From Candidatus Thorarchaeota archaeon (GTDB lineage: Archaea > Asgardarchaeota > Thorarchaeia > Thorarchaeales > Thorarchaeaceae): a stretch of 29,929 bases of DNA. The DNA lies in the NCBI GenBank assembly GCA_019057475.1, contig DXJO01000029.1:1-29929 (forward strand), in the 5' to 3' direction. The translations under genes were made by a program, and so were the position numbers. The notes under the pieces are model-generated. The model searched no databases and was not told the origin of the DNA. It worked only from the letters and a program-made list of their open reading frames with translations. Below are positions 8,921 to 23,184 of the stretch, one piece after another; position 1 is the first letter of the stretch; each line of letters starts with the position of its first letter.

Positions 8921-8955
8921 AGTGACGAAGTGGCCTCTTCAAAGAAAATAGAGAG

Positions 8956-9059
8956 TGGACCGGGCGAGATTCGAACTCGCGACCTCCCGGACATTCGGCC
9001 TGCTGAACAAGCCAGCAGGCTTGCGAACCGAACGATCTACCAGGCTGATCTACCGGCCC
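8956..9059 (-). tRNA. tRNA-Ala(CGC) with a 30-nt intron at 37/38 (intron 8992-9021)
   Basis: Reverse complement folds as a cloverleaf: acceptor GGGCCGG/CCGGTCC with G3:U70, anticodon CGC, T-arm GCGAG-TTCGAAT-CTCGC. BHB helix ttcg/cgaa, intron hairpin gcctgctg/cagcaggc. Confidence 0.95.
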
Positions 9060-13999: not shown

Positions 14000-15531
<1,532 letters not shown>

Positions 15532-15747: not shown

Positions 15748-18700
15748 TCACATTGCGCGCAGTATTCTTCTTCTGAGTCGTCGAGCTCCTGACAGGGCCT
15801 TCTTGTACGACTCGACCTTCCATCTACTGATGAATTCCTGATAGATCTCGATGCACTCCTCAATGTTGTCGAGTGACTCTCTCAGGCTTTTCCTCTTCAG
15901 ACGTAATGCAGCTAACTCATACAGAGCCTCAGCGACCTCAATAGAGGAGAACTCCTCGACAGCCTCTTCCCTCCTGAACTCAAGAATTGCTTCGAGCACT
16001 TCCTCCTCCGTATCTTCTCCCTCTACCTCTGTTTCCAGAAGTGTGATGTAGATGTCCCTGAGAATCTCCCTGCTTCTCGCGAGTAGCTCATCGTAGCCAT
16101 GGATTCTGTCACACGGTTCCTCCTCGTCATCGAAATAGTTCTGCACAATTTCTTGGATATTCTTCTCCATGAAATCTAGGCCATCTTGAACATCCACCCC
16201 TGGTTCCAATGTGACAGCAAGCCAAGAACAAACTTCATCTCCTGTCTGGTCCGACAAAGCAGTCAACTTGACCCCAGTCCCATCCCTGCACACAGAACAG
16301 GTAAGCTTCTCTTCCCTCATCTCGAGGTATGCCCCGGGTCTTGCCCTCTTCAGGCTCAGCTTGCGAGAAATGGGTCCACTCTCTCTAAAGACGACCCCAT
16401 CTCGAGTCTCTGGATCTGGACTGGCCTCAACATCAAACTCGTAGCGGGCAGTTTCCAGGAACACCCCTCCAGACATCAAGCCGACCACTTCATTGTCCGC
16501 CAGCGCCCCCTGGCTAAGTTCCAGAAGAAGGGAGTCATCAAGGTCAACTGGAAACTCTACCCGCCAACAGACACCATGCATTTCTGCGATGCCCTGTGCG
16601 ATAGGACACAGGCTCTCATCGTGTCTAATTATCATCGTTTCATATTCGACTTCTCGACTGGTCAGTTCTTTGGCTGTGAGAGGCAGCGGCAAACGTACAT
16701 TAATGAACGGGGTTCTCCGTTCGACGTAAGGTCTTAGAAGCTGCAGTTCTCCGTAGTCGATGTCCTTGTATGGATTCCACATGTAGTACTCTCTAGACTT
16801 CTTTGAACTTTGAAGGCTGACTCCATCCACCATCGGGCGTCTAAGGAGCTCGAGCAAGTCCGAGGTCCGAAAGATACTCCTTTGGTCGCAGGGTTCGTCA
16901 CCACCGGACTTGTCATAGAGATTCACTACGTACTTGCCCGAGTCTGTACTCAACTTACACTCAATGGAATCAACCTTCGAAAGCATCTTCGATATTGATC
17001 TGAGTTCCTTTTTCACTCTTGTTCGCAGACTGGGCTGTATAGTCAAGCCCTTGGGTTCTTCAGGTGTATTATCCGGTGAAACTGCATGTATTCCCAAACC
17101 TCTGATGGCAGTGATTGCACCCCTCTTGCGTCGTATCAGTGTCATCCTACCCAAGAGCTGCCACTTGCCAGCATCATAGGCCCAAAGGTACTCTGCGCCT
17201 GCGAAACTACTTACAGCTAGACTGTAGGACTCATTCGAATTCACACATATCGACGCACCCTTTGCTATAAGATCGTGTTGAGTGGTCGACCATCTAATCG
17301 TGTTTCTCAGTTCTAAGGGTCCTCGGCCAATCCAAAGCCCGTTCAGCATATTCCGTTTGTCATAGGAGTCCTCAATGGCTACCCAAGAGTACTGATTGTC
17401 ATCATCGTCTGAATGATAGAGAATCTGTCCAAAGACAACATTGGTGCATGACTCCCTAGGAACCTTCGCAAGGAACTCTGCTCTCTTTGAGAGGTTTGCC
17501 CAGATAGCCCTGACATCAAACTTCACACTTCTAGCTTGGGTCATCCTTGTCTGGTCTGGAGTGGTCCCCAGCTGCATCAGTTGCCATGGTTTCAGTACCT
17601 CCCATAGATGACGCAAATGTTCTTGGCTCAGGGATGGAAATCTTGTTCTGATTGCTGTCAAAAGGAGGAACAGATAGTTGCCATGGAACAATGCAAGGTG
17701 GGGTCTTGTTTCCATGAGAATATCTAAGGTCTGCTTGACTTCTCCTCTAAGACCTGAGGTCAAGCGACTCTCGCGAGTCCACTCAAGGGTATTCCAGAGT
17801 GATACGGACAGGGAATCGGTCTTCAGACAGTGTGCCACTTCATTGAGCATGTCAAGACTGATGGCATCTGTTTGCTTGGACACTATCTCTTGAAGATCAG
17901 AAAGCAGGTGTTCTTCCTCTTTGTTGTCAACCCCCTTATGCCCACTCCTTTTGTGCGCTGATAGGAACCTAATTGTTTGTCGGAGTCGACGAATTTCTAC
18001 TCTCTGAGCCCTCTTCTCGTTGGGATTGCCTAGTACTAGGACCCCCTCATTCGGTGGCCGGTGGGTCTGAGCAACAATCTCTCTCTCCAACCTATCTTCC
18101 CTATACTGTCTAGGGTGTGTGATTTTCTGAGTCGGCATTATTTCGCTGCTAGTGACAAATCCCTTCCCATGAGTGCCTGCATTTACTCGCGCGCGATATG
18201 ACATTCGTGACATGATTCCAGAGTGCTGAGCAGCTTTCTCCGGTAGCGGGGTGATCTCCAATAATGAGTCAGAGTCTGGTTTCATTTCCGCCTCTTTTTC
18301 AAATAAGGAAGGGTATAGAGCGCGCAGCCACGGGATTAGGTCAAGTGAGTCCCGGATGAGCTCAGCTCGAAAAGCAGCCCTTTGAGGACTGCTGATGACA
18401 TCACAAGCTAGGAGTGGACGTCGTCCTCGACCAGTCCTCTTCCTTCTTCGTGTAGCCTTTGCTTTTTCTCTCTTGCTCCAGAATCTCGAGGACCAGTCTT
18501 GAAGCGGGGGGACCTCGATGAGATTCCACTCGATATCTGTCTTTGAGTGTCTGATTATCACACGGACATTATCCAGTAAGGGAGTAGTTCGTCCATGAAT
18601 TGATGGTCTGACGGGGAGATTCCAGACTAAATCGGTTACATGATATCTGTGTGGTGAGTCCTCCCAGAAAGGCACTACACCCCTTCTCTGATAGATTGCC

Positions 18701-20829
18701 GAGGATAGATTCGAGGGTTTTGGCCTGACAAACCAAACAGTGGTACAACCGAGAGCATTCAACTCTCCAACAAATACACGTTCCAATTCCAGCAGTGCAG
18801 CCTTGAGCCTTTGAGGCGTTTCATTCTCCAATTCACCCCAGCCAGTCACTACAACTATCATGTCACTCGGCTTTTCCGATTCAGGTGATGTCAAGGAATC
18901 GATGTCCGGGATTTCTCCTCCTTTGAAGAGATAGTCATAAATGCTTGAAGACATGTCCTTGATTTCTATGGAGTTGAAGAACGTCCGAATGTGTTTCTGC
19001 TGGCTCTTGATTCTCAGCCTTGTTTCCGCTAATGGCTTGAAATGGAAGTTGCCTGCTAGATCCAACCAGACAACCTTGGACTTGTCCTCGGATTGCTTCA
19101 GGTCATAGAGGAATTGTAGTGCATGCCAATACTCTGCCGTCCATGCTGCAGTGGGCCCTGATCTCGAGGCACTTCTTACACTGAGATAGAGGATATGCCG
19201 TCTGTCCTTGGAGGTTGACCAAACGAAGGGATTGAAAGAAACACGTCGCTTAACCGGCACACCAGTCGTCCCGATTGCCATTAATTTCGTTTTCTCACAA
19301 CCGCACAGCAATATGGCCACTCTCTTTGCAGCTGGGTTCTTGCTCCTGATTGACATGCGCCGTGCCAGTCGTGTCTGATTCTGCCTTATGCTATCCCGAC
19401 ATATGTGTCGCACAAGCAACAGTAGCTGACTCTGTGCGATTCTGGCGTCCTGCTGCGTATCGACAAGTACAATTCCTCGTAGGATATCCACTGACTCCTG
19501 GTCCCCGGTCGCTTTCCTATACTCGTTTGCAATGCCTGCAGAATAGGCACCAAGTTGCTGGACATCGGTCTTAGTGGGTACTTCGGTTATTGCTTCTTCC
19601 CACTCCATATCGGTGAGTCCGCGCATTCGGGTTTCGAGCTTGGGGACCATCTTCTCACGTTTCTTCTCGGTTCCGTCAGCTCGTCGTTGCCCTCTCGGCC
19701 GCTTGGTCCGGACTTCCCAATGAAACGCTGTTCGTGTCTTGATATCGAAGACTGCGATTGGTTGCCATATCGTAAGTTTACCTGGATGTCTTGGATTCTG
19801 TATTATCCGACGCTTGAAGACGATAAGATCCGCTCGACCCTTGCCCATGGGTGTTTCCAAAGGAACTTCAGCAGCTATCAGAAGTTCTTCGCCGGAATCA
19901 GCTAAACGGTCACCATCCAGAATGACTGACCTCAACGTGAATGGCTGAGGAAGTCCATTGGCAAGTAGACTATGCCATCTAATGCCTGCCCATCTTGCTT
20001 TTCTAATCACTTCTCTTCTGAGTCGCTCCGCATCTTTATCCCGAAGCTTGGGCTTTTTGCCTTCAAGAAGCCTATCAAGAAGGGTTATCCAATCTTGTCG
20101 ATACTCCTGTTCGATATCAGCCAAGTCTTGACTAGAATGCTGGAGCTTGTGGATTTGGTCGACGAAGAATTGCCTACAGGCCTCGGGATTAGGCTCAGGG
20201 ATTCTGCTGGTTGGTGCAACTGCACGACCAGTTCTCTTGCCGTATAGAGCCTCAATCTCCTGCACCAAAGCCCTGAGTATCTGGTCAGCATCAGGACCCT
20301 GCTGTCTTTTCTTCGCCTTCTTGTTCCTAGCTCGTTTGAAACCCCTTCTACCGGATTGACCTGATGTATAGACATACTCGACAAAGGGGATGAGTTGCCT
20401 AATCAGAAATGACACGTAGCTACGCGCATCGCCGATGGGAACATTGTGAATGAATGCTTTGCGGCAGTATTCCCGGAGGTGTGATCTGATCATGTCTGCG
20501 AAGTCCAACTCTGGCAGGTCGGGGCCGTGAGCGACCGGAACGCTCCCATACATGGATCCCCCGTCATACCCCCTGATTGTTGTTCGTCCTTTGTTGCCTA
20601 TCACTATCGGTTCGGGGAATGGAAACAGTCGAAGGAAATAATCGCGAAGCTGTGCACCTGCCATGTTGAACAGTGCATTTAGAGGACCAACCACTCCTTC
20701 TTTCTCATTCTTGACTCGTTTTCGTTCAGTGTTTCCATAGCGTGCAGTTGTCATCCATGCATTCTTGAGTTCGGCGCTACGTAGATGCTTTTCCTGACCT
20801 GTGACGACTGAGAAGTCTGGTTTCTCCAA
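15748..20829 (-). CDS. very large protein with a RecB/Cas4-like PD-(D/E)XK nuclease domain, possible degenerate RecA-like NTPase fold and C-terminal TPR-like helices; frame stays open upstream to about 21003
   Basis: E321...RAD334...D362-I-K364...Q425-x3-Y429. Then LYLSVRSASRSGPT / VVWLD / IVVVTGW, and C-terminal EVAEALYELAAL...IEECIEIY. Confidence 0.75.
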   Translation of the reverse strand: MEKPDFSVVTGQEKHLRSAELKNAWMTTARYGNTERKRVKNEKEGVVGPLNALFNMAGAQLRDYFLRLFPFPEPIVIGNKGRTTIRGYDGGSMYGSVPVAHGPDLPELDFADMIRSHLREYCRKAFIHNVPIGDARSYVSFLIRQLIPFVEYVYTSGQSGRRGFKRARNKKAKKRQQGPDADQILRALVQEIEALYGKRTGRAVAPTSRIPEPNPEACRQFFVDQIHKLQHSSQDLADIEQEYRQDWITLLDRLLEGKKPKLRDKDAERLRREVIRKARWAGIRWHSLLANGLPQPFTLRSVILDGDRLADSGEELLIAAEVPLETPMGKGRADLIVFKRRIIQNPRHPGKLTIWQPIAVFDIKTRTAFHWEVRTKRPRGQRRADGTEKKREKMVPKLETRMRGLTDMEWEEAITEVPTKTDVQQLGAYSAGIANEYRKATGDQESVDILRGIVLVDTQQDARIAQSQLLLLVRHICRDSIRQNQTRLARRMSIRSKNPAAKRVAILLCGCEKTKLMAIGTTGVPVKRRVSFNPFVWSTSKDRRHILYLSVRSASRSGPTAAWTAEYWHALQFLYDLKQSEDKSKVVWLDLAGNFHFKPLAETRLRIKSQQKHIRTFFNSIEIKDMSSSIYDYLFKGGEIPDIDSLTSPESEKPSDMIVVVTGWGELENETPQRLKAALLELERVFVGELNALGCTTVWFVRPKPSNLSSAIYQRRGVVPFWEDSPHRYHVTDLVWNLPVRPSIHGRTTPLLDNVRVIIRHSKTDIEWNLIEVPPLQDWSSRFWSKREKAKATRRRKRTGRGRRPLLACDVISSPQRAAFRAELIRDSLDLIPWLRALYPSLFEKEAEMKPDSDSLLEITPLPEKAAQHSGIMSRMSYRARVNAGTHGKGFVTSSEIMPTQKITHPRQYREDRLEREIVAQTHRPPNEGVLVLGNPNEKRAQRVEIRRLRQTIRFLSAHKRSGHKGVDNKEEEHLLSDLQEIVSKQTDAISLDMLNEVAHCLKTDSLSVSLWNTLEWTRESRLTSGLRGEVKQTLDILMETRPHLALFHGNYLFLLLTAIRTRFPSLSQEHLRHLWEVLKPWQLMQLGTTPDQTRMTQARSVKFDVRAIWANLSKRAEFLAKVPRESCTNVVFGQILYHSDDDDNQYSWVAIEDSYDKRNMLNGLWIGRGPLELRNTIRWSTTQHDLIAKGASICVNSNESYSLAVSSFAGAEYLWAYDAGKWQLLGRMTLIRRKRGAITAIRGLGIHAVSPDNTPEEPKGLTIQPSLRTRVKKELRSISKMLSKVDSIECKLSTDSGKYVVNLYDKSGGDEPCDQRSIFRTSDLLELLRRPMVDGVSLQSSKKSREYYMWNPYKDIDYGELQLLRPYVERRTPFINVRLPLPLTAKELTSREVEYETMIIRHDESLCPIAQGIAEMHGVCWRVEFPVDLDDSLLLELSQGALADNEVVGLMSGGVFLETARYEFDVEASPDPETRDGVVFRESGPISRKLSLKRARPGAYLEMREEKLTCSVCRDGTGVKLTALSDQTGDEVCSWLAVTLEPGVDVQDGLDFMEKNIQEIVQNYFDDEEEPCDRIHGYDELLARSREILRDIYITLLETEVEGEDTEEEVLEAILEFRREEAVEEFSSIEVAEALYELAALRLKRKSLRESLDNIEECIEIYQEFISRWKVESYKKALSGARRLRRRILRAM

Positions 20830-21162
20830 ACGCTTGGTTTCTTTCCATTGAAACAGAGCCCTATTGAATCGTCGAGCTGACCTCTCGTAGATATGACGAG
20901 TATCCTTGATGACACGTTCACGGAGTATGTCCAGCAGAGCCCTCAGTCCAATTAGATGTCCTTCTGTGATGACTTCAGCGGGGTTTTCTGGAAACAGAAT
21001 TACTCACCTGAGTGTCTGGTGACAAATTCCGTGAATAAGGGGCGCGGGTAATTCCCTTATTAGTTCTGCGAGAGACGCCTTCTGAATTTAAAACATCGCC
21101 TTCTTAAAATATAGTCTTAATGAATTTATATATCCAAATACATCACAAAATGGTGGAGAATA

Positions 21163-21194
21163 TCATTCATTCTTCGTAATGAAAGAGTGAGTGA
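21163..21194 (+). other. hairpin at the putative left end of the tnpB unit
   Basis: tcattcattctt/aagagtgagtga 12-bp stem with G-U pairs, starting right after GGAGAATA. TTTATATA at about 21125-21132. Confidence 0.55.
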
Positions 21195-22933
21195 AACTCC
21201 CTTGGCCTGAAGCAGGTCGGGAATTTATATGTCCGAGGAGAAAATTCGTGGGTCGCTCTAGTGGCGTAATGATAACCGCAAAGGTCCCTGTCAGATGGGA
21301 TGTGTTGACTGCTAGGCAGAAGACACGCCTGTCTAGGATTACAAGCAGAGACACGCGAGTCATCAAGGCCTATCTTGGAGTGATTGAAAAGCATGAGAAG
21401 AATCTGCTCGTCGGAAAGAGAAAGAAGCGACTAAATGCTGGTACAATTGACGAACTGACTCTGAGAACCAAGAACCGGTCATCAGTGCCGCACGACTTCA
21501 AACGACGATTCAGCAACATCTCTGTCAACGAACTGCAAGAATGTCGAGACACAGCTATGGCCATGTGGCAGGTGTACCTTGCCCTAGGTAGAGGAAAGCC
21601 ACTAAGAGCCAAGGGCTACTGTTCTCGGAAGCTGCCTCGACATGTGTTCAAGCAGAGGTTCAAATTCCTCTATACTCCTAACAAGTCTATCAAGCATTGG
21701 CTAGTTATTCGTGACTCCCTAGACTCAGTAAGAGAGGGACGGGTCAGACACGACAAGCTGTCGATACCTTTGAATCCGTCCTCGTATCATCTGAACCGAT
21801 TGAAGTCGGGTGAGATCAAGTCTATACAGATTGTCAAGGACCACAGCAAGAAATGGTGGGTCTTGTTCAAGGTGAAGCTGAAACCTGAGCCCGTCGACAC
21901 GACCTCGAAGCCACCTGCGGTAATCGGAATTGACCTCGGCATCAAGAAGGCGGTATGTTCTGTCGTTCTTACACAGAAGGGTATGAAACACATCCAATTC
22001 TGGACCCAGAAGGATAAGGCTCGGCAGATTGAGCAATACGACCAGATGATTGCCAGTCTACAATCCAAGAAAGAGGATCTCCTGAAGCAGGGATGTTCAG
22101 CTGATGATGTCACTCAACGACTTCGACAATTGAGTTCGAAACGAGAGAACATCAGCTTCGACTATGACAGAAAACTAGTCAAACTGCTGAGCGAACACGT
22201 TCTGGAGTTATCTGACAAGTATGATGTCCATGTTGCTATTGGCCGACTCAAAGGAATTCGCAATCGGGCTAGAAGGGGAAACTACAGGGGTCCTAAGTTC
22301 CGCGGAATGATTCACAGATGGGCATTCGCTAGAATTACAGACTCGTTGAAACACAAGCTTAGCATGAATGGTTTCAGTCCCAAAAGAGTATTTGCAGTAC
22401 CTGAGGCTTGGACTAGCATCAAGTGCCATAAGTGTGGACACAAGGGCATCCGCCCCAAGCAGAGCTTCTTTCTCTGTCACACTTGCGGCTATCGTGACAA
22501 CGCCGACAAGAATGCCGCCATCAACATAGGAAGGCGGCTCATCATGCTCATTCCTTCACTGAAGGATGAGAAAGGACTAGGGATGTGGCTCCTCTCTCAC
22601 GAGAAAGCCGCCCCGAAGACCCGGAGGAGCAAACGCTCTAAACGGATGTCCTCACTCCCCAAGAGGTTGCCAATCTCGTCTGAGGGGAAGTCCGTGGCTG
22701 ACTGCATTCAGACATCTCTCGGGATGTTCAGCAGTACCGACCCCGCCATGGCAACAACCATGGAAACACCGTCTGCCGCTATGGATTCTGGCCCCCATAG
22801 CACAACAAGGCAGCGGACAGAGACTATGTCTGGGATGAGGAACTCTGTTCCAATGATGCCCAGCGAAACTCTTGCACAGCCAGCAGAAGAGGTTCTGTTG
22901 GTTGCTGGTGACAGCAGTCATGAGGAGGGCTGA
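21191..22933 (+). CDS. tnpB: TnpB/Cas12f-family RNA-guided endonuclease with rearranged RuvC-II; likely start GTG 21248 or ATG 21269
   Basis: RuvC-I GID248LG, canonical Glu position is Gly (AIG351RL), alternative E405 in VPEAWTS, Zn finger CHKC/CHTC, RuvC-III NAD439KNAAINI. GAGGAG SD before 21248. Confidence 0.9.
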   Translation: MKLPWPEAGREFICPRRKFVGRSSGVMITAKVPVRWDVLTARQKTRLSRITSRDTRVIKAYLGVIEKHEKNLLVGKRKKRLNAGTIDELTLRTKNRSSVPHDFKRRFSNISVNELQECRDTAMAMWQVYLALGRGKPLRAKGYCSRKLPRHVFKQRFKFLYTPNKSIKHWLVIRDSLDSVREGRVRHDKLSIPLNPSSYHLNRLKSGEIKSIQIVKDHSKKWWVLFKVKLKPEPVDTTSKPPAVIGIDLGIKKAVCSVVLTQKGMKHIQFWTQKDKARQIEQYDQMIASLQSKKEDLLKQGCSADDVTQRLRQLSSKRENISFDYDRKLVKLLSEHVLELSDKYDVHVAIGRLKGIRNRARRGNYRGPKFRGMIHRWAFARITDSLKHKLSMNGFSPKRVFAVPEAWTSIKCHKCGHKGIRPKQSFFLCHTCGYRDNADKNAAINIGRRLIMLIPSLKDEKGLGMWLLSHEKAAPKTRRSKRSKRMSSLPKRLPISSEGKSVADCIQTSLGMFSSTDPAMATTMETPSAAMDSGPHSTTRQRTETMSGMRNSVPMMPSETLAQPAEEVLLVAGDSSHEEG

Positions 22934-23041
22934 ACATGGAAGTTGAAGGTAGAGTGGAGTTTCACTCACACTATCAGCAACGGTCGGACGTCCCTGCTTC
23001 TTGCACACACCGCCTCAGGCAGGTCAGGCCTTGTTACGACT
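22934..23041 (+). ncRNA. putative 3' end of the omega-RNA with 16S-derived guide segment(s)
   Basis: 22988-23014 is identical to the spliced 16S. 23029-23041 is complementary to 16S 15484-15496. Position matches the TnpB guide location. The 5' boundary probably lies inside tnpB. Confidence 0.65.
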
Positions 23042-23184
23042 CTACAATCTTTGAACCTGGAGGAGTTGTGCAGGTTACATATCCGGAAGGAACCAGCTGG
23101 GGACCACCTCTTCTGTTTGTATTCACGGAAACCGAAACACAAAACTAGAAACAAAAGGAACCCAATCAAGGGAGAAGACAGGAT

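Follow-up and report, generated by a model that had tools for sequence, protein, structure and literature searches.

Altae-Tran et al. (2023, PMC10691335) described TnpB proteins of Asgard archaea, Cas1H-Asgard-1 and Cas1H-Asgard-2, whose genes are adjacent to a Cas1 homolog (aCas1-TnpB) and are followed by a conserved GTTCACTCA-type motif. The guide was tentatively placed in the variable region before that motif, and function was left open. Proteins in which a Gly replaces a RuvC Glu and an alternative Glu is present were predicted to be active (PMC10691335), and the alternative Glu was essential for cutting in a Fanzor (PMC10530073).

We analyzed a window of 29,929 nt from Candidatus Thorarchaeota archaeon (GCA_019057475.1, contig DXJO01000029.1), and all coordinates given here are positions in that window unless a related locus is named. 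Its tnpB gene (21248–22933, + strand) is a Thorarchaeota member of the published Cas1-associated Asgard TnpB family, with which it shares the Asgard host, the adjacent Cas1 homolog and the conserved GTTCACTCA-type motif downstream of tnpB. Unlike the published placement, the guide here starts about 18 nt past the motif; beyond the published description, the motif was found to pair with an upstream leader, and targets and a TAM were identified. We lean, with a little better than even confidence, toward the view that the Cas1-associated Asgard TnpB behind the 16S gene is a free-standing homing endonuclease that is guided by RNA and keeps itself in check. No prior description of this guide architecture was found in the literature searched, which covered few subscription journals.

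TnpB and its Cas1/Cas4-like neighbor

The tnpB ORF scored above the cut-off for NF040570, its predicted fold was nearest to those of Cas12f and TnpB, and a homolog search identified hundreds of Thorarchaeota relatives. The folded core extends to near position 22600 (residues are numbered from 21266), and the last 110 residues are unstructured and overlie covarying RNA. The RuvC residues D223 and D414 and the alternative E380 were invariant in 38 proteins, and G326, which replaces the usual RuvC-II Glu, was also invariant, as were four zinc-finger Cys residues among the aligned TnpB proteins. As judged from these residues, the G326/E380 rearrangement is compatible with TnpB activity. A nuclease-dead TnpB repressor (TldR) was considered and rejected because both Asp residues and the alternative Glu are kept in all 38 proteins.

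Head-to-head with tnpB is a gene of the aCas1 type (15748–21000, − strand), which encodes a protein of ~1750 aa with a Cas1 helical domain followed by a Cas4-like PD-(D/E)xK nuclease, a domain order based on a wide structural search and motifs. The top nine hits of the structural search were all Cas1 (Z 6.9–9.1), and Cas4 was found at Z 6.0; with this large protein as query, Pfam, NCBIfam, the ESM Atlas, PDB sequences and Foldseek returned no significant hit. The head-to-head arrangement was present in 33 of the 56 loci having enough flank. The called ORF starts at a TTG (20829), and the frame is open for ~58 codons further upstream, to ~21000, with the extension aligning with homolog N-termini; the true start is probably an ATT or CTG after a GGTGA motif at 20995–21006 (− strand).

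The sequence-only reading had stated that no tnpA is present in the window. Neither a Y1 nor a serine TnpA was found in a scan of ten proteins of the window or among genes called at homologous loci, but the statement passes over the Cas1/Cas4-like gene next to tnpB. No relative of the query was found on viral contigs.

Omega RNA, guide array and 16S target sites

The omega-RNA scaffold (22640–22987, + strand) lies under the unstructured C-terminal tail of the tnpB ORF. Its consensus has 77 pairs, 48 of them with a compensatory change (covariation term −13.45). The terminal hairpin (22942–22981) holds the arm at 22956–22969, and the right-end motif GGTCGG (22982–22987) forms a covarying pseudoknot with 22737–22742, the pairs of which change together across clades (CCGACC/GGTCGG, AAGACC/GGTCTT, ATGACC/GGTCAT). 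In widely scattered copies the sequence past the right-end motif is unique to each locus. Since the motif ends the scaffold and locus-unique sequence follows it, guide 1 starts at 22988, one position before the 22989 given earlier. As in the TnpB/omega RNA of IS200/IS605 and IS607 (reviewed in PMC13565253), the scaffold overlaps the 3' end of the ORF and has an end pseudoknot, the TAM is 5', and the guide lies past the right end. Unlike in those elements, no Y1 or serine TnpA was found among the proteins and loci scanned, there are several guides, a second guide RNA is predicted to be loaded in trans, and the guide does not correspond to sequence bordering an empty site: the guides match stretches inside the 16S gene, on either strand, and that gene is intact 5.7 kb upstream. 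Truncated remnants of the scaffold and right end, with no intact tnpB, were observed in a related genome (G000 C18:34577–34835, C26:146583–147120 and C39:22137–22337).

The 16S rRNA gene (14000–15531, + strand; Rfam RF01959), the single 16S hit in the assembly, holds three guide target sites. Guide 1 (22988–23014) is a perfect 27-nt match to intron-less 16S at target 1 (15344–15404, + strand; TAM GAAT at 15344–15347, protospacer from 15348). In this host the target is split after 10 nt by a 30-nt bulge-helix-bulge hairpin intron (15358–15387; an insertion relative to relatives, with a 4-bp helix, 3-nt bulges and a fold z of −3.4), leaving guide 1 a 10-nt match to the host's own allele. The other two guides address sites at which the host intron is absent, and both carry seed mismatches. 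Guide 2, which is antisense to 16S and follows repeat 2 (23020–23027; unit 23020–23041), mismatches target 2 (15484–15501, − strand; TAM GGAT, protospacer from 15497 downward) at position 1. The decayed guide 3, which follows a degenerate repeat 3 (unit 23092–23112), mismatches target 3 (15516–15531, + strand; TAM GGAT, protospacer from 15520, the 16S 3' end) at position 4. A tRNA-Ala gene with a 22-nt intron also lies in the window (8955–9059, − strand).

The same pattern was seen in related arrays. In a TAM-agnostic scan of 22 arrays, 16S sequence followed 33 of 36 repeats, in 32 cases directly after AT. These comparisons, which are of sequence throughout, establish an omega RNA in the tnpB 3' end, guides after the motif and targets after an AT TAM. 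The 16S guides address only four sites, on both strands, of the 22 AT sites in the region, and these four are exactly the Thorarchaeota intron sites; in the 16S genes of relatives they carry introns of 29–33 nt in varying combinations. None of 28 guides matched its host's own allele over 15 nt or more, and matches of at least 11 nt numbered three, compared with 8.0 expected when arrays were reassigned to other hosts (P=0.013; the loci are related). Three hosts (G027, G018 and L164, the tnpB of G018 being broken) retain perfect self-matches of 12–14 nt with the TAM, for which reason we assumed a cutting threshold of ~15 nt. Guides in three loci (L168, G007 and L175) match another strain's exon-intron junction over 13–17 nt, and the guides were therefore probably copied from real alleles. 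In the only host of the 16S clade that lacks all of these introns, tnpB is broken. In a quick tree without bootstrap, 16S targeting appeared twice, in one clade located behind the 16S gene and, by a second origin, in a distant lineage; TnpB of the latter, also behind a 16S gene, targets two of the same four sites. Self-avoidance of the arrays at four polymorphic 16S sites is evident as a pattern, from which we infer the mechanism proposed below. As in homing endonuclease systems, the target lies in the adjacent conserved gene and the self allele is predicted to be resistant, with the three partial exceptions at 12–14 nt.

Guides of related clades were found to have other targets. A sister aCas1-TnpB clade precedes an mvhD-like gene (G000 C18:46502–48300; L012–L016, L018, L181), with guides aimed at non-self synonymous variants of the CMQC codons; in 8 of 8 loci, synonymous changes in the TAM or seed set the guides apart from the host's allele. 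In further clades, guides or flanks match the adjacent tRNA gene (L146, L147, L149, L152, L159, L162, L182), including a two-unit array against the tRNA-Asp anticodon arm (L182) and a degenerate tRNA copy of ~40 nt at the far end of another locus (L147).

An alternative explanation of the short guides, which is unlikely in our judgment, is a CAST-like role in which they recruit the aCas1 integrase without cutting to safe-harbor genes (the 16S 3' end, tRNAs, mvhD) and the element inserts alongside. The association of aCas1 with tnpB in 33 of 56 loci would be explained, as would guides pointing at the conserved gene that adjoins the element in the 16S, tRNA and mvhD clades and the many matches of only 10–14 nt. 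However, the distance of the target from the gene end (0–200 nt) and its strand vary, the nuclease triad is kept, and avoidance of the own allele would be unneeded for a guide that does not cut.

Short hairpin introns have been described in the 16S genes of Thermoproteales, where they are known to spread by co-conversion with a neighboring homing endonuclease (PMC4496867). The Thorarchaeota introns are likewise short and ORF-less with a bulge-helix-bulge junction. They differ in that nearly all are 30 nt, in their confinement to the final 200 nt of the gene, where their positions lie outside the 13 loci of PMC4496867 (by approximate numbering), and in having a putative partner nuclease that is RNA-guided and located outside the gene. 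Up to five ~30-nt introns per 16S gene were observed in Thorarchaeota (L063–L071, L124–L127, L135, L164–L171); long 16S introns with ORFs were also observed (L075 2464–3252, 849 nt, encoding a LAGLIDADG protein; L085 near 2513, 911 nt). One of the short introns splits what we take to be the 1492R primer site, and could hide these archaea from amplicon surveys.

A predicted leader RNA that pairs with the scaffold

A crRNA-like leader RNA of ~82 nt is predicted upstream of tnpB (21153–21234, + strand; putative start) from a fold z of −3.4, the alignment and a consensus fold. It consists of hairpin 1 (21155–21200), which includes the pairing arm (21180–21200), hairpin 2 (21201–21221), a repeat end (21213–21220) and a self-guide (21221–21234) that overlaps TATA box 2. 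The hairpin first proposed at 21163–21194 is part of hairpin 1, which also takes in 21155–21158 paired with 21197–21200. The leader ends in the same motif as the right end of the omega RNA, and the next 9–16 nt copy the locus's own TATA box in 49 of 60 loci (37 different 12-mers). The TATA-box self-target lies ~95 nt upstream of its copy and is preceded by T[A/C]AT in all 49. Here it spans 21118–21135 (+ strand), comprising the TAM TAAT (21118–21121) and TATA box 1 (21122–21135), the predicted promoter of the leader RNA. The TATA-like 10-mer was found at 21122 and 21221 only, the two positions initially reported. The downstream copy has no TAM and lies ~25 nt before the tnpB start, and is therefore probably the promoter of a leaderless tnpB mRNA.

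The leader was kept in nearly all loci with upstream sequence, including those lacking TATA box 1. In one locus (L029), at least three tandem copies of the leader unit form an array upstream of tnpB. In another (L170 9641–10001), a deletion from between the 16S trailer and the leader has removed aCas1, and TATA box 1 is lost, but the leader, tnpB and a three-unit array are retained.

The sequence strings quoted in the sequence-only reading were all located where it had placed them, and its observation that 21187–21200 is the exact reverse complement of 22956–22969 proved correct; a 14-nt perfect match arose in 0 of 1000 shuffles. The pairing, which connects the leader with the terminal hairpin of the scaffold at its loop and 5' arm, continues to 21180/22976 (19 of 21 pairs) but is patchy beyond, so that the earlier limit of 21174/22983 was generous. 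A second complementarity reported between 21204–21210 and 23024–23030 is real, but 21204–21210 is the local partner of the repeat at 21213–21220; the downstream copy straddles a mutated repeat/guide junction.

The arms are conserved in 51 homologs and covary, so the lack of conservation and covariation that the sequence-only reading had named as telling against its proposal was not what we found. The arm core is almost invariant in the 51 loci, with compensatory changes at flanking positions, and 653 arm pairs were formed compared with 586 ± 12 (maximum 633) in cross-locus shuffles, which ignore phylogeny. The cognate leader:scaffold duplex had a mean energy of −26.4 kcal/mol, versus −20.3 for non-cognate and −14.5 for shuffled partners and −10.8 for the cis hairpin, contrasts that relatedness inflates. 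The cognate leader ranked first among partners in just 7 of 50 loci, its median rank being 4. Covariation thus supports pairing of the leader arm with the scaffold, for which we suggest a regulatory function below. A bulge-helix-bulge between the arms that would splice out tnpB was also considered and was rejected, as the pairing register has no such motif.

Covariation alone cannot separate RNA pairing from pairing at the DNA level, and the arms could instead be sub-terminal inverted repeats recognized by aCas1, which would move the leader, tnpB and right end as a unit, with RNA pairing incidental. Casposases recognize terminal inverted repeats, and several aCas1-less copies begin near the leader 5' end. 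We nevertheless find this explanation distinctly unlikely: the arms are internal, with 18 nt of scaffold beyond one and the promoter and aCas1 outside the other; the pairing continues through bulges and G-U pairs; the downstream arm is unpaired in the cis fold in 30 of 45 loci; and the self-guide is left unexplained. Recognition of the arms as DNA would not exclude an RNA role.

The sequence-only reading had also suggested that the upstream segment is a separately transcribed tracrRNA-like partner. With its conserved and covarying inverted repeat, the leader does behave as a separate RNA partner, but the tracrRNA role looks inverted. The downstream omega RNA bears an anti-repeat and is complete in cis, and the leader bears the repeat end and a spacer. 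Because the upstream RNA is repeat plus spacer and the downstream RNA anti-repeat plus scaffold, the leader looks like a crRNA, presumably transcribed separately, that would join the omega-RNA scaffold in trans and so bring about self-repression. Were the upstream RNA instead an indispensable tracrRNA-like component of a split scaffold, required for all cleavage, this would account for the persistence of the leader in nearly all loci with upstream sequence, even after loss of TATA box 1, and for a trans duplex that is stabler than the cis hairpin. Such a role is nonetheless improbable, given that the downstream RNA is already equipped with a terminal hairpin, a pseudoknot and a guide and that the leader ends in repeat plus spacer, the anatomy of a crRNA.

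Origin of the unit, proposed mechanism and comparison with known systems

Copies of the 16S 3' end (25–43 nt, reference positions 1460–1502) were observed on the contigs of many relatives (L113–L118, L128, L131–L134, L140–L143). They often extend into the last intron, several share the same start base, and they look like attachment sites of tandem islands. The genes after the array are often restriction-modification systems (L112, L164, L167, L168, L172, L174), and the site is therefore a variable defense island. Both observations would suit a defense against integrative elements that bear a 16S 3'-end copy as attachment site, with the introns marking self. Such a role is very improbable, however, since the copies cover only positions 1460–1502, with two of the four target sites outside, and since it does not explain the mvhD-like clade.

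The sequence-only reading had further proposed that joining the flanks of the unit reconstructs an empty site within a 16S gene. The 8-mer GGAGAATA does occur at 21155 and at 15341, and the 34-nt join is exact, being this genome's 16S minus the 30-nt intron at 15358–15387. However, the GGAG of the 8-mer belongs to the leader, where it forms the 5' side of a conserved stem by pairing with CTCC at the base of hairpin 1, and it recurs in clades with targets other than 16S; the sequence preceding the 8-mer at 21155 differs from 16S. Two features located upstream of 21155, the promoter and the Cas1-like gene, are co-inherited with tnpB (33 of 56 loci); because they lie outside the 8-mer yet travel with tnpB, the empty-site interpretation is unsupported. 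The proposed search for homologs inserted within 16S found no tnpB in any fetched 16S gene, and hence none within an intron of its target gene, as would be expected of an IStron or rRNA-intron nuclease; the one long Thorarchaeota 16S intron tested (G014) encodes a LAGLIDADG protein. No target-site duplication was found for the 16S clade; two mobile copies lose similarity shortly beyond the stop codon of aCas1, where an AT precedes the break, but this is no more than suggestive. That the unit at 21163–22988 was formerly an IS or intron within a 16S gene and later left it, taking its flanks along, is thus, despite the exact join, scarcely credible and already largely refuted by the shared GGAG stem, by guides on both strands against four sites, often three per locus, by the tnpB-free 16S genes and by the co-inherited promoter and aCas1.

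Based on these comparisons we return to RNA-guided homing with self-control, in which transcription, loading, repression, cleavage and homing are all steps that we infer. The element would have settled behind a 16S gene. A leader RNA of ~82 nt made from TATA box 1 would pair with the loop and 5' arm of the omega-RNA terminal hairpin, replacing the cis 3' arm, and would bring a short (10–14 nt) guide against TATA box 1. This guide is probably too short to cut, so that TnpB would block the TATA box 1 promoter in a negative feedback. When DNA of a related strain shares the cell, TnpB would cut the other strain's 16S allele, and repair from the resident copy would cause the element and the resistant allele to spread or be retained (collaborative or intronless homing). 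Since the guides aim at 16S versions absent from the host, TnpB probably cuts rival 16S copies while tiny introns protect the host's own. In this host the 30-nt intron would protect target 1, and guides 2 and 3, which address sites left unprotected, have decayed.

The Cas1-Cas4 fusion is the obvious candidate for guide writing. Taken together, and only as a tentative proposal in which we place rather low confidence, the fusion may write guides from foreign alleles of the neighboring gene, cut next to AT, into the omega-RNA tail, making the locus a primitive adaptive, CRISPR-like inter-strain gene drive; the 30-nt 16S introns may be resistance alleles of an arms race; and the leader may swap guides by strand invasion of an intact omega RNA.

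These findings give an uncharacterized published TnpB family a TAM, a guide boundary and natural targets, and offer a testable reason for the ORF-less mini-introns of Asgard 16S genes. They suggest RNA-guided allele competition at an essential gene. A TnpB that seemingly uses both a cis guide and a crRNA-like guide loaded in trans would be an intermediate of the kind predicted for the TnpB-to-Cas12 transition, and if its Cas1-Cas4 partner writes guides, the locus bears on the origin of CRISPR adaptation.

The anatomy of the leader resembles that of CreR/crlRNA, which autorepresses Cas promoters, including that of Cas12a (bioRxiv 10.1101/2023.03.10.532045; 10.1101/2023.03.03.530964). In both, a degenerate repeat is followed by a short spacer that matches the effector's own promoter beside a PAM or TAM (here in 49 of 60 loci), and repression is predicted here. 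Unlike with CreR, a transposon TnpB that uses an omega-RNA scaffold takes the place of the Cas effector, the matched promoter element is an archaeal TATA box and there is no canonical CRISPR array: rather than regular direct repeats, only a ~8-nt motif recurs, in one to three units with irregular spacing. As in the split guides (tracrRNA:crRNA) of TranC and Cas12f (PMC13565253), a scaffold and a predicted separate repeat-spacer RNA would be joined by a duplex; unlike in those systems, the scaffold keeps its own cis guide, and the repeats have ~8 conserved nt with degenerate tails.

The functional parallel that we propose is with free-standing homing endonucleases, such as T4 Seg/Mob and F-CphI with the psbA intron (PMC13565253, PMC2790892, PMC6083498), in which a nuclease gene likewise lies beside a conserved gene. 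In intronless or collaborative homing, as at this locus, an ORF-less intron or substitutions distinguish the self allele from the target allele. Unlike in the T4 and F-CphI systems, the specificity here would come from exchangeable RNA guides and not from the protein, the host is a cellular archaeon, and cutting and homing are predictions from sequence.
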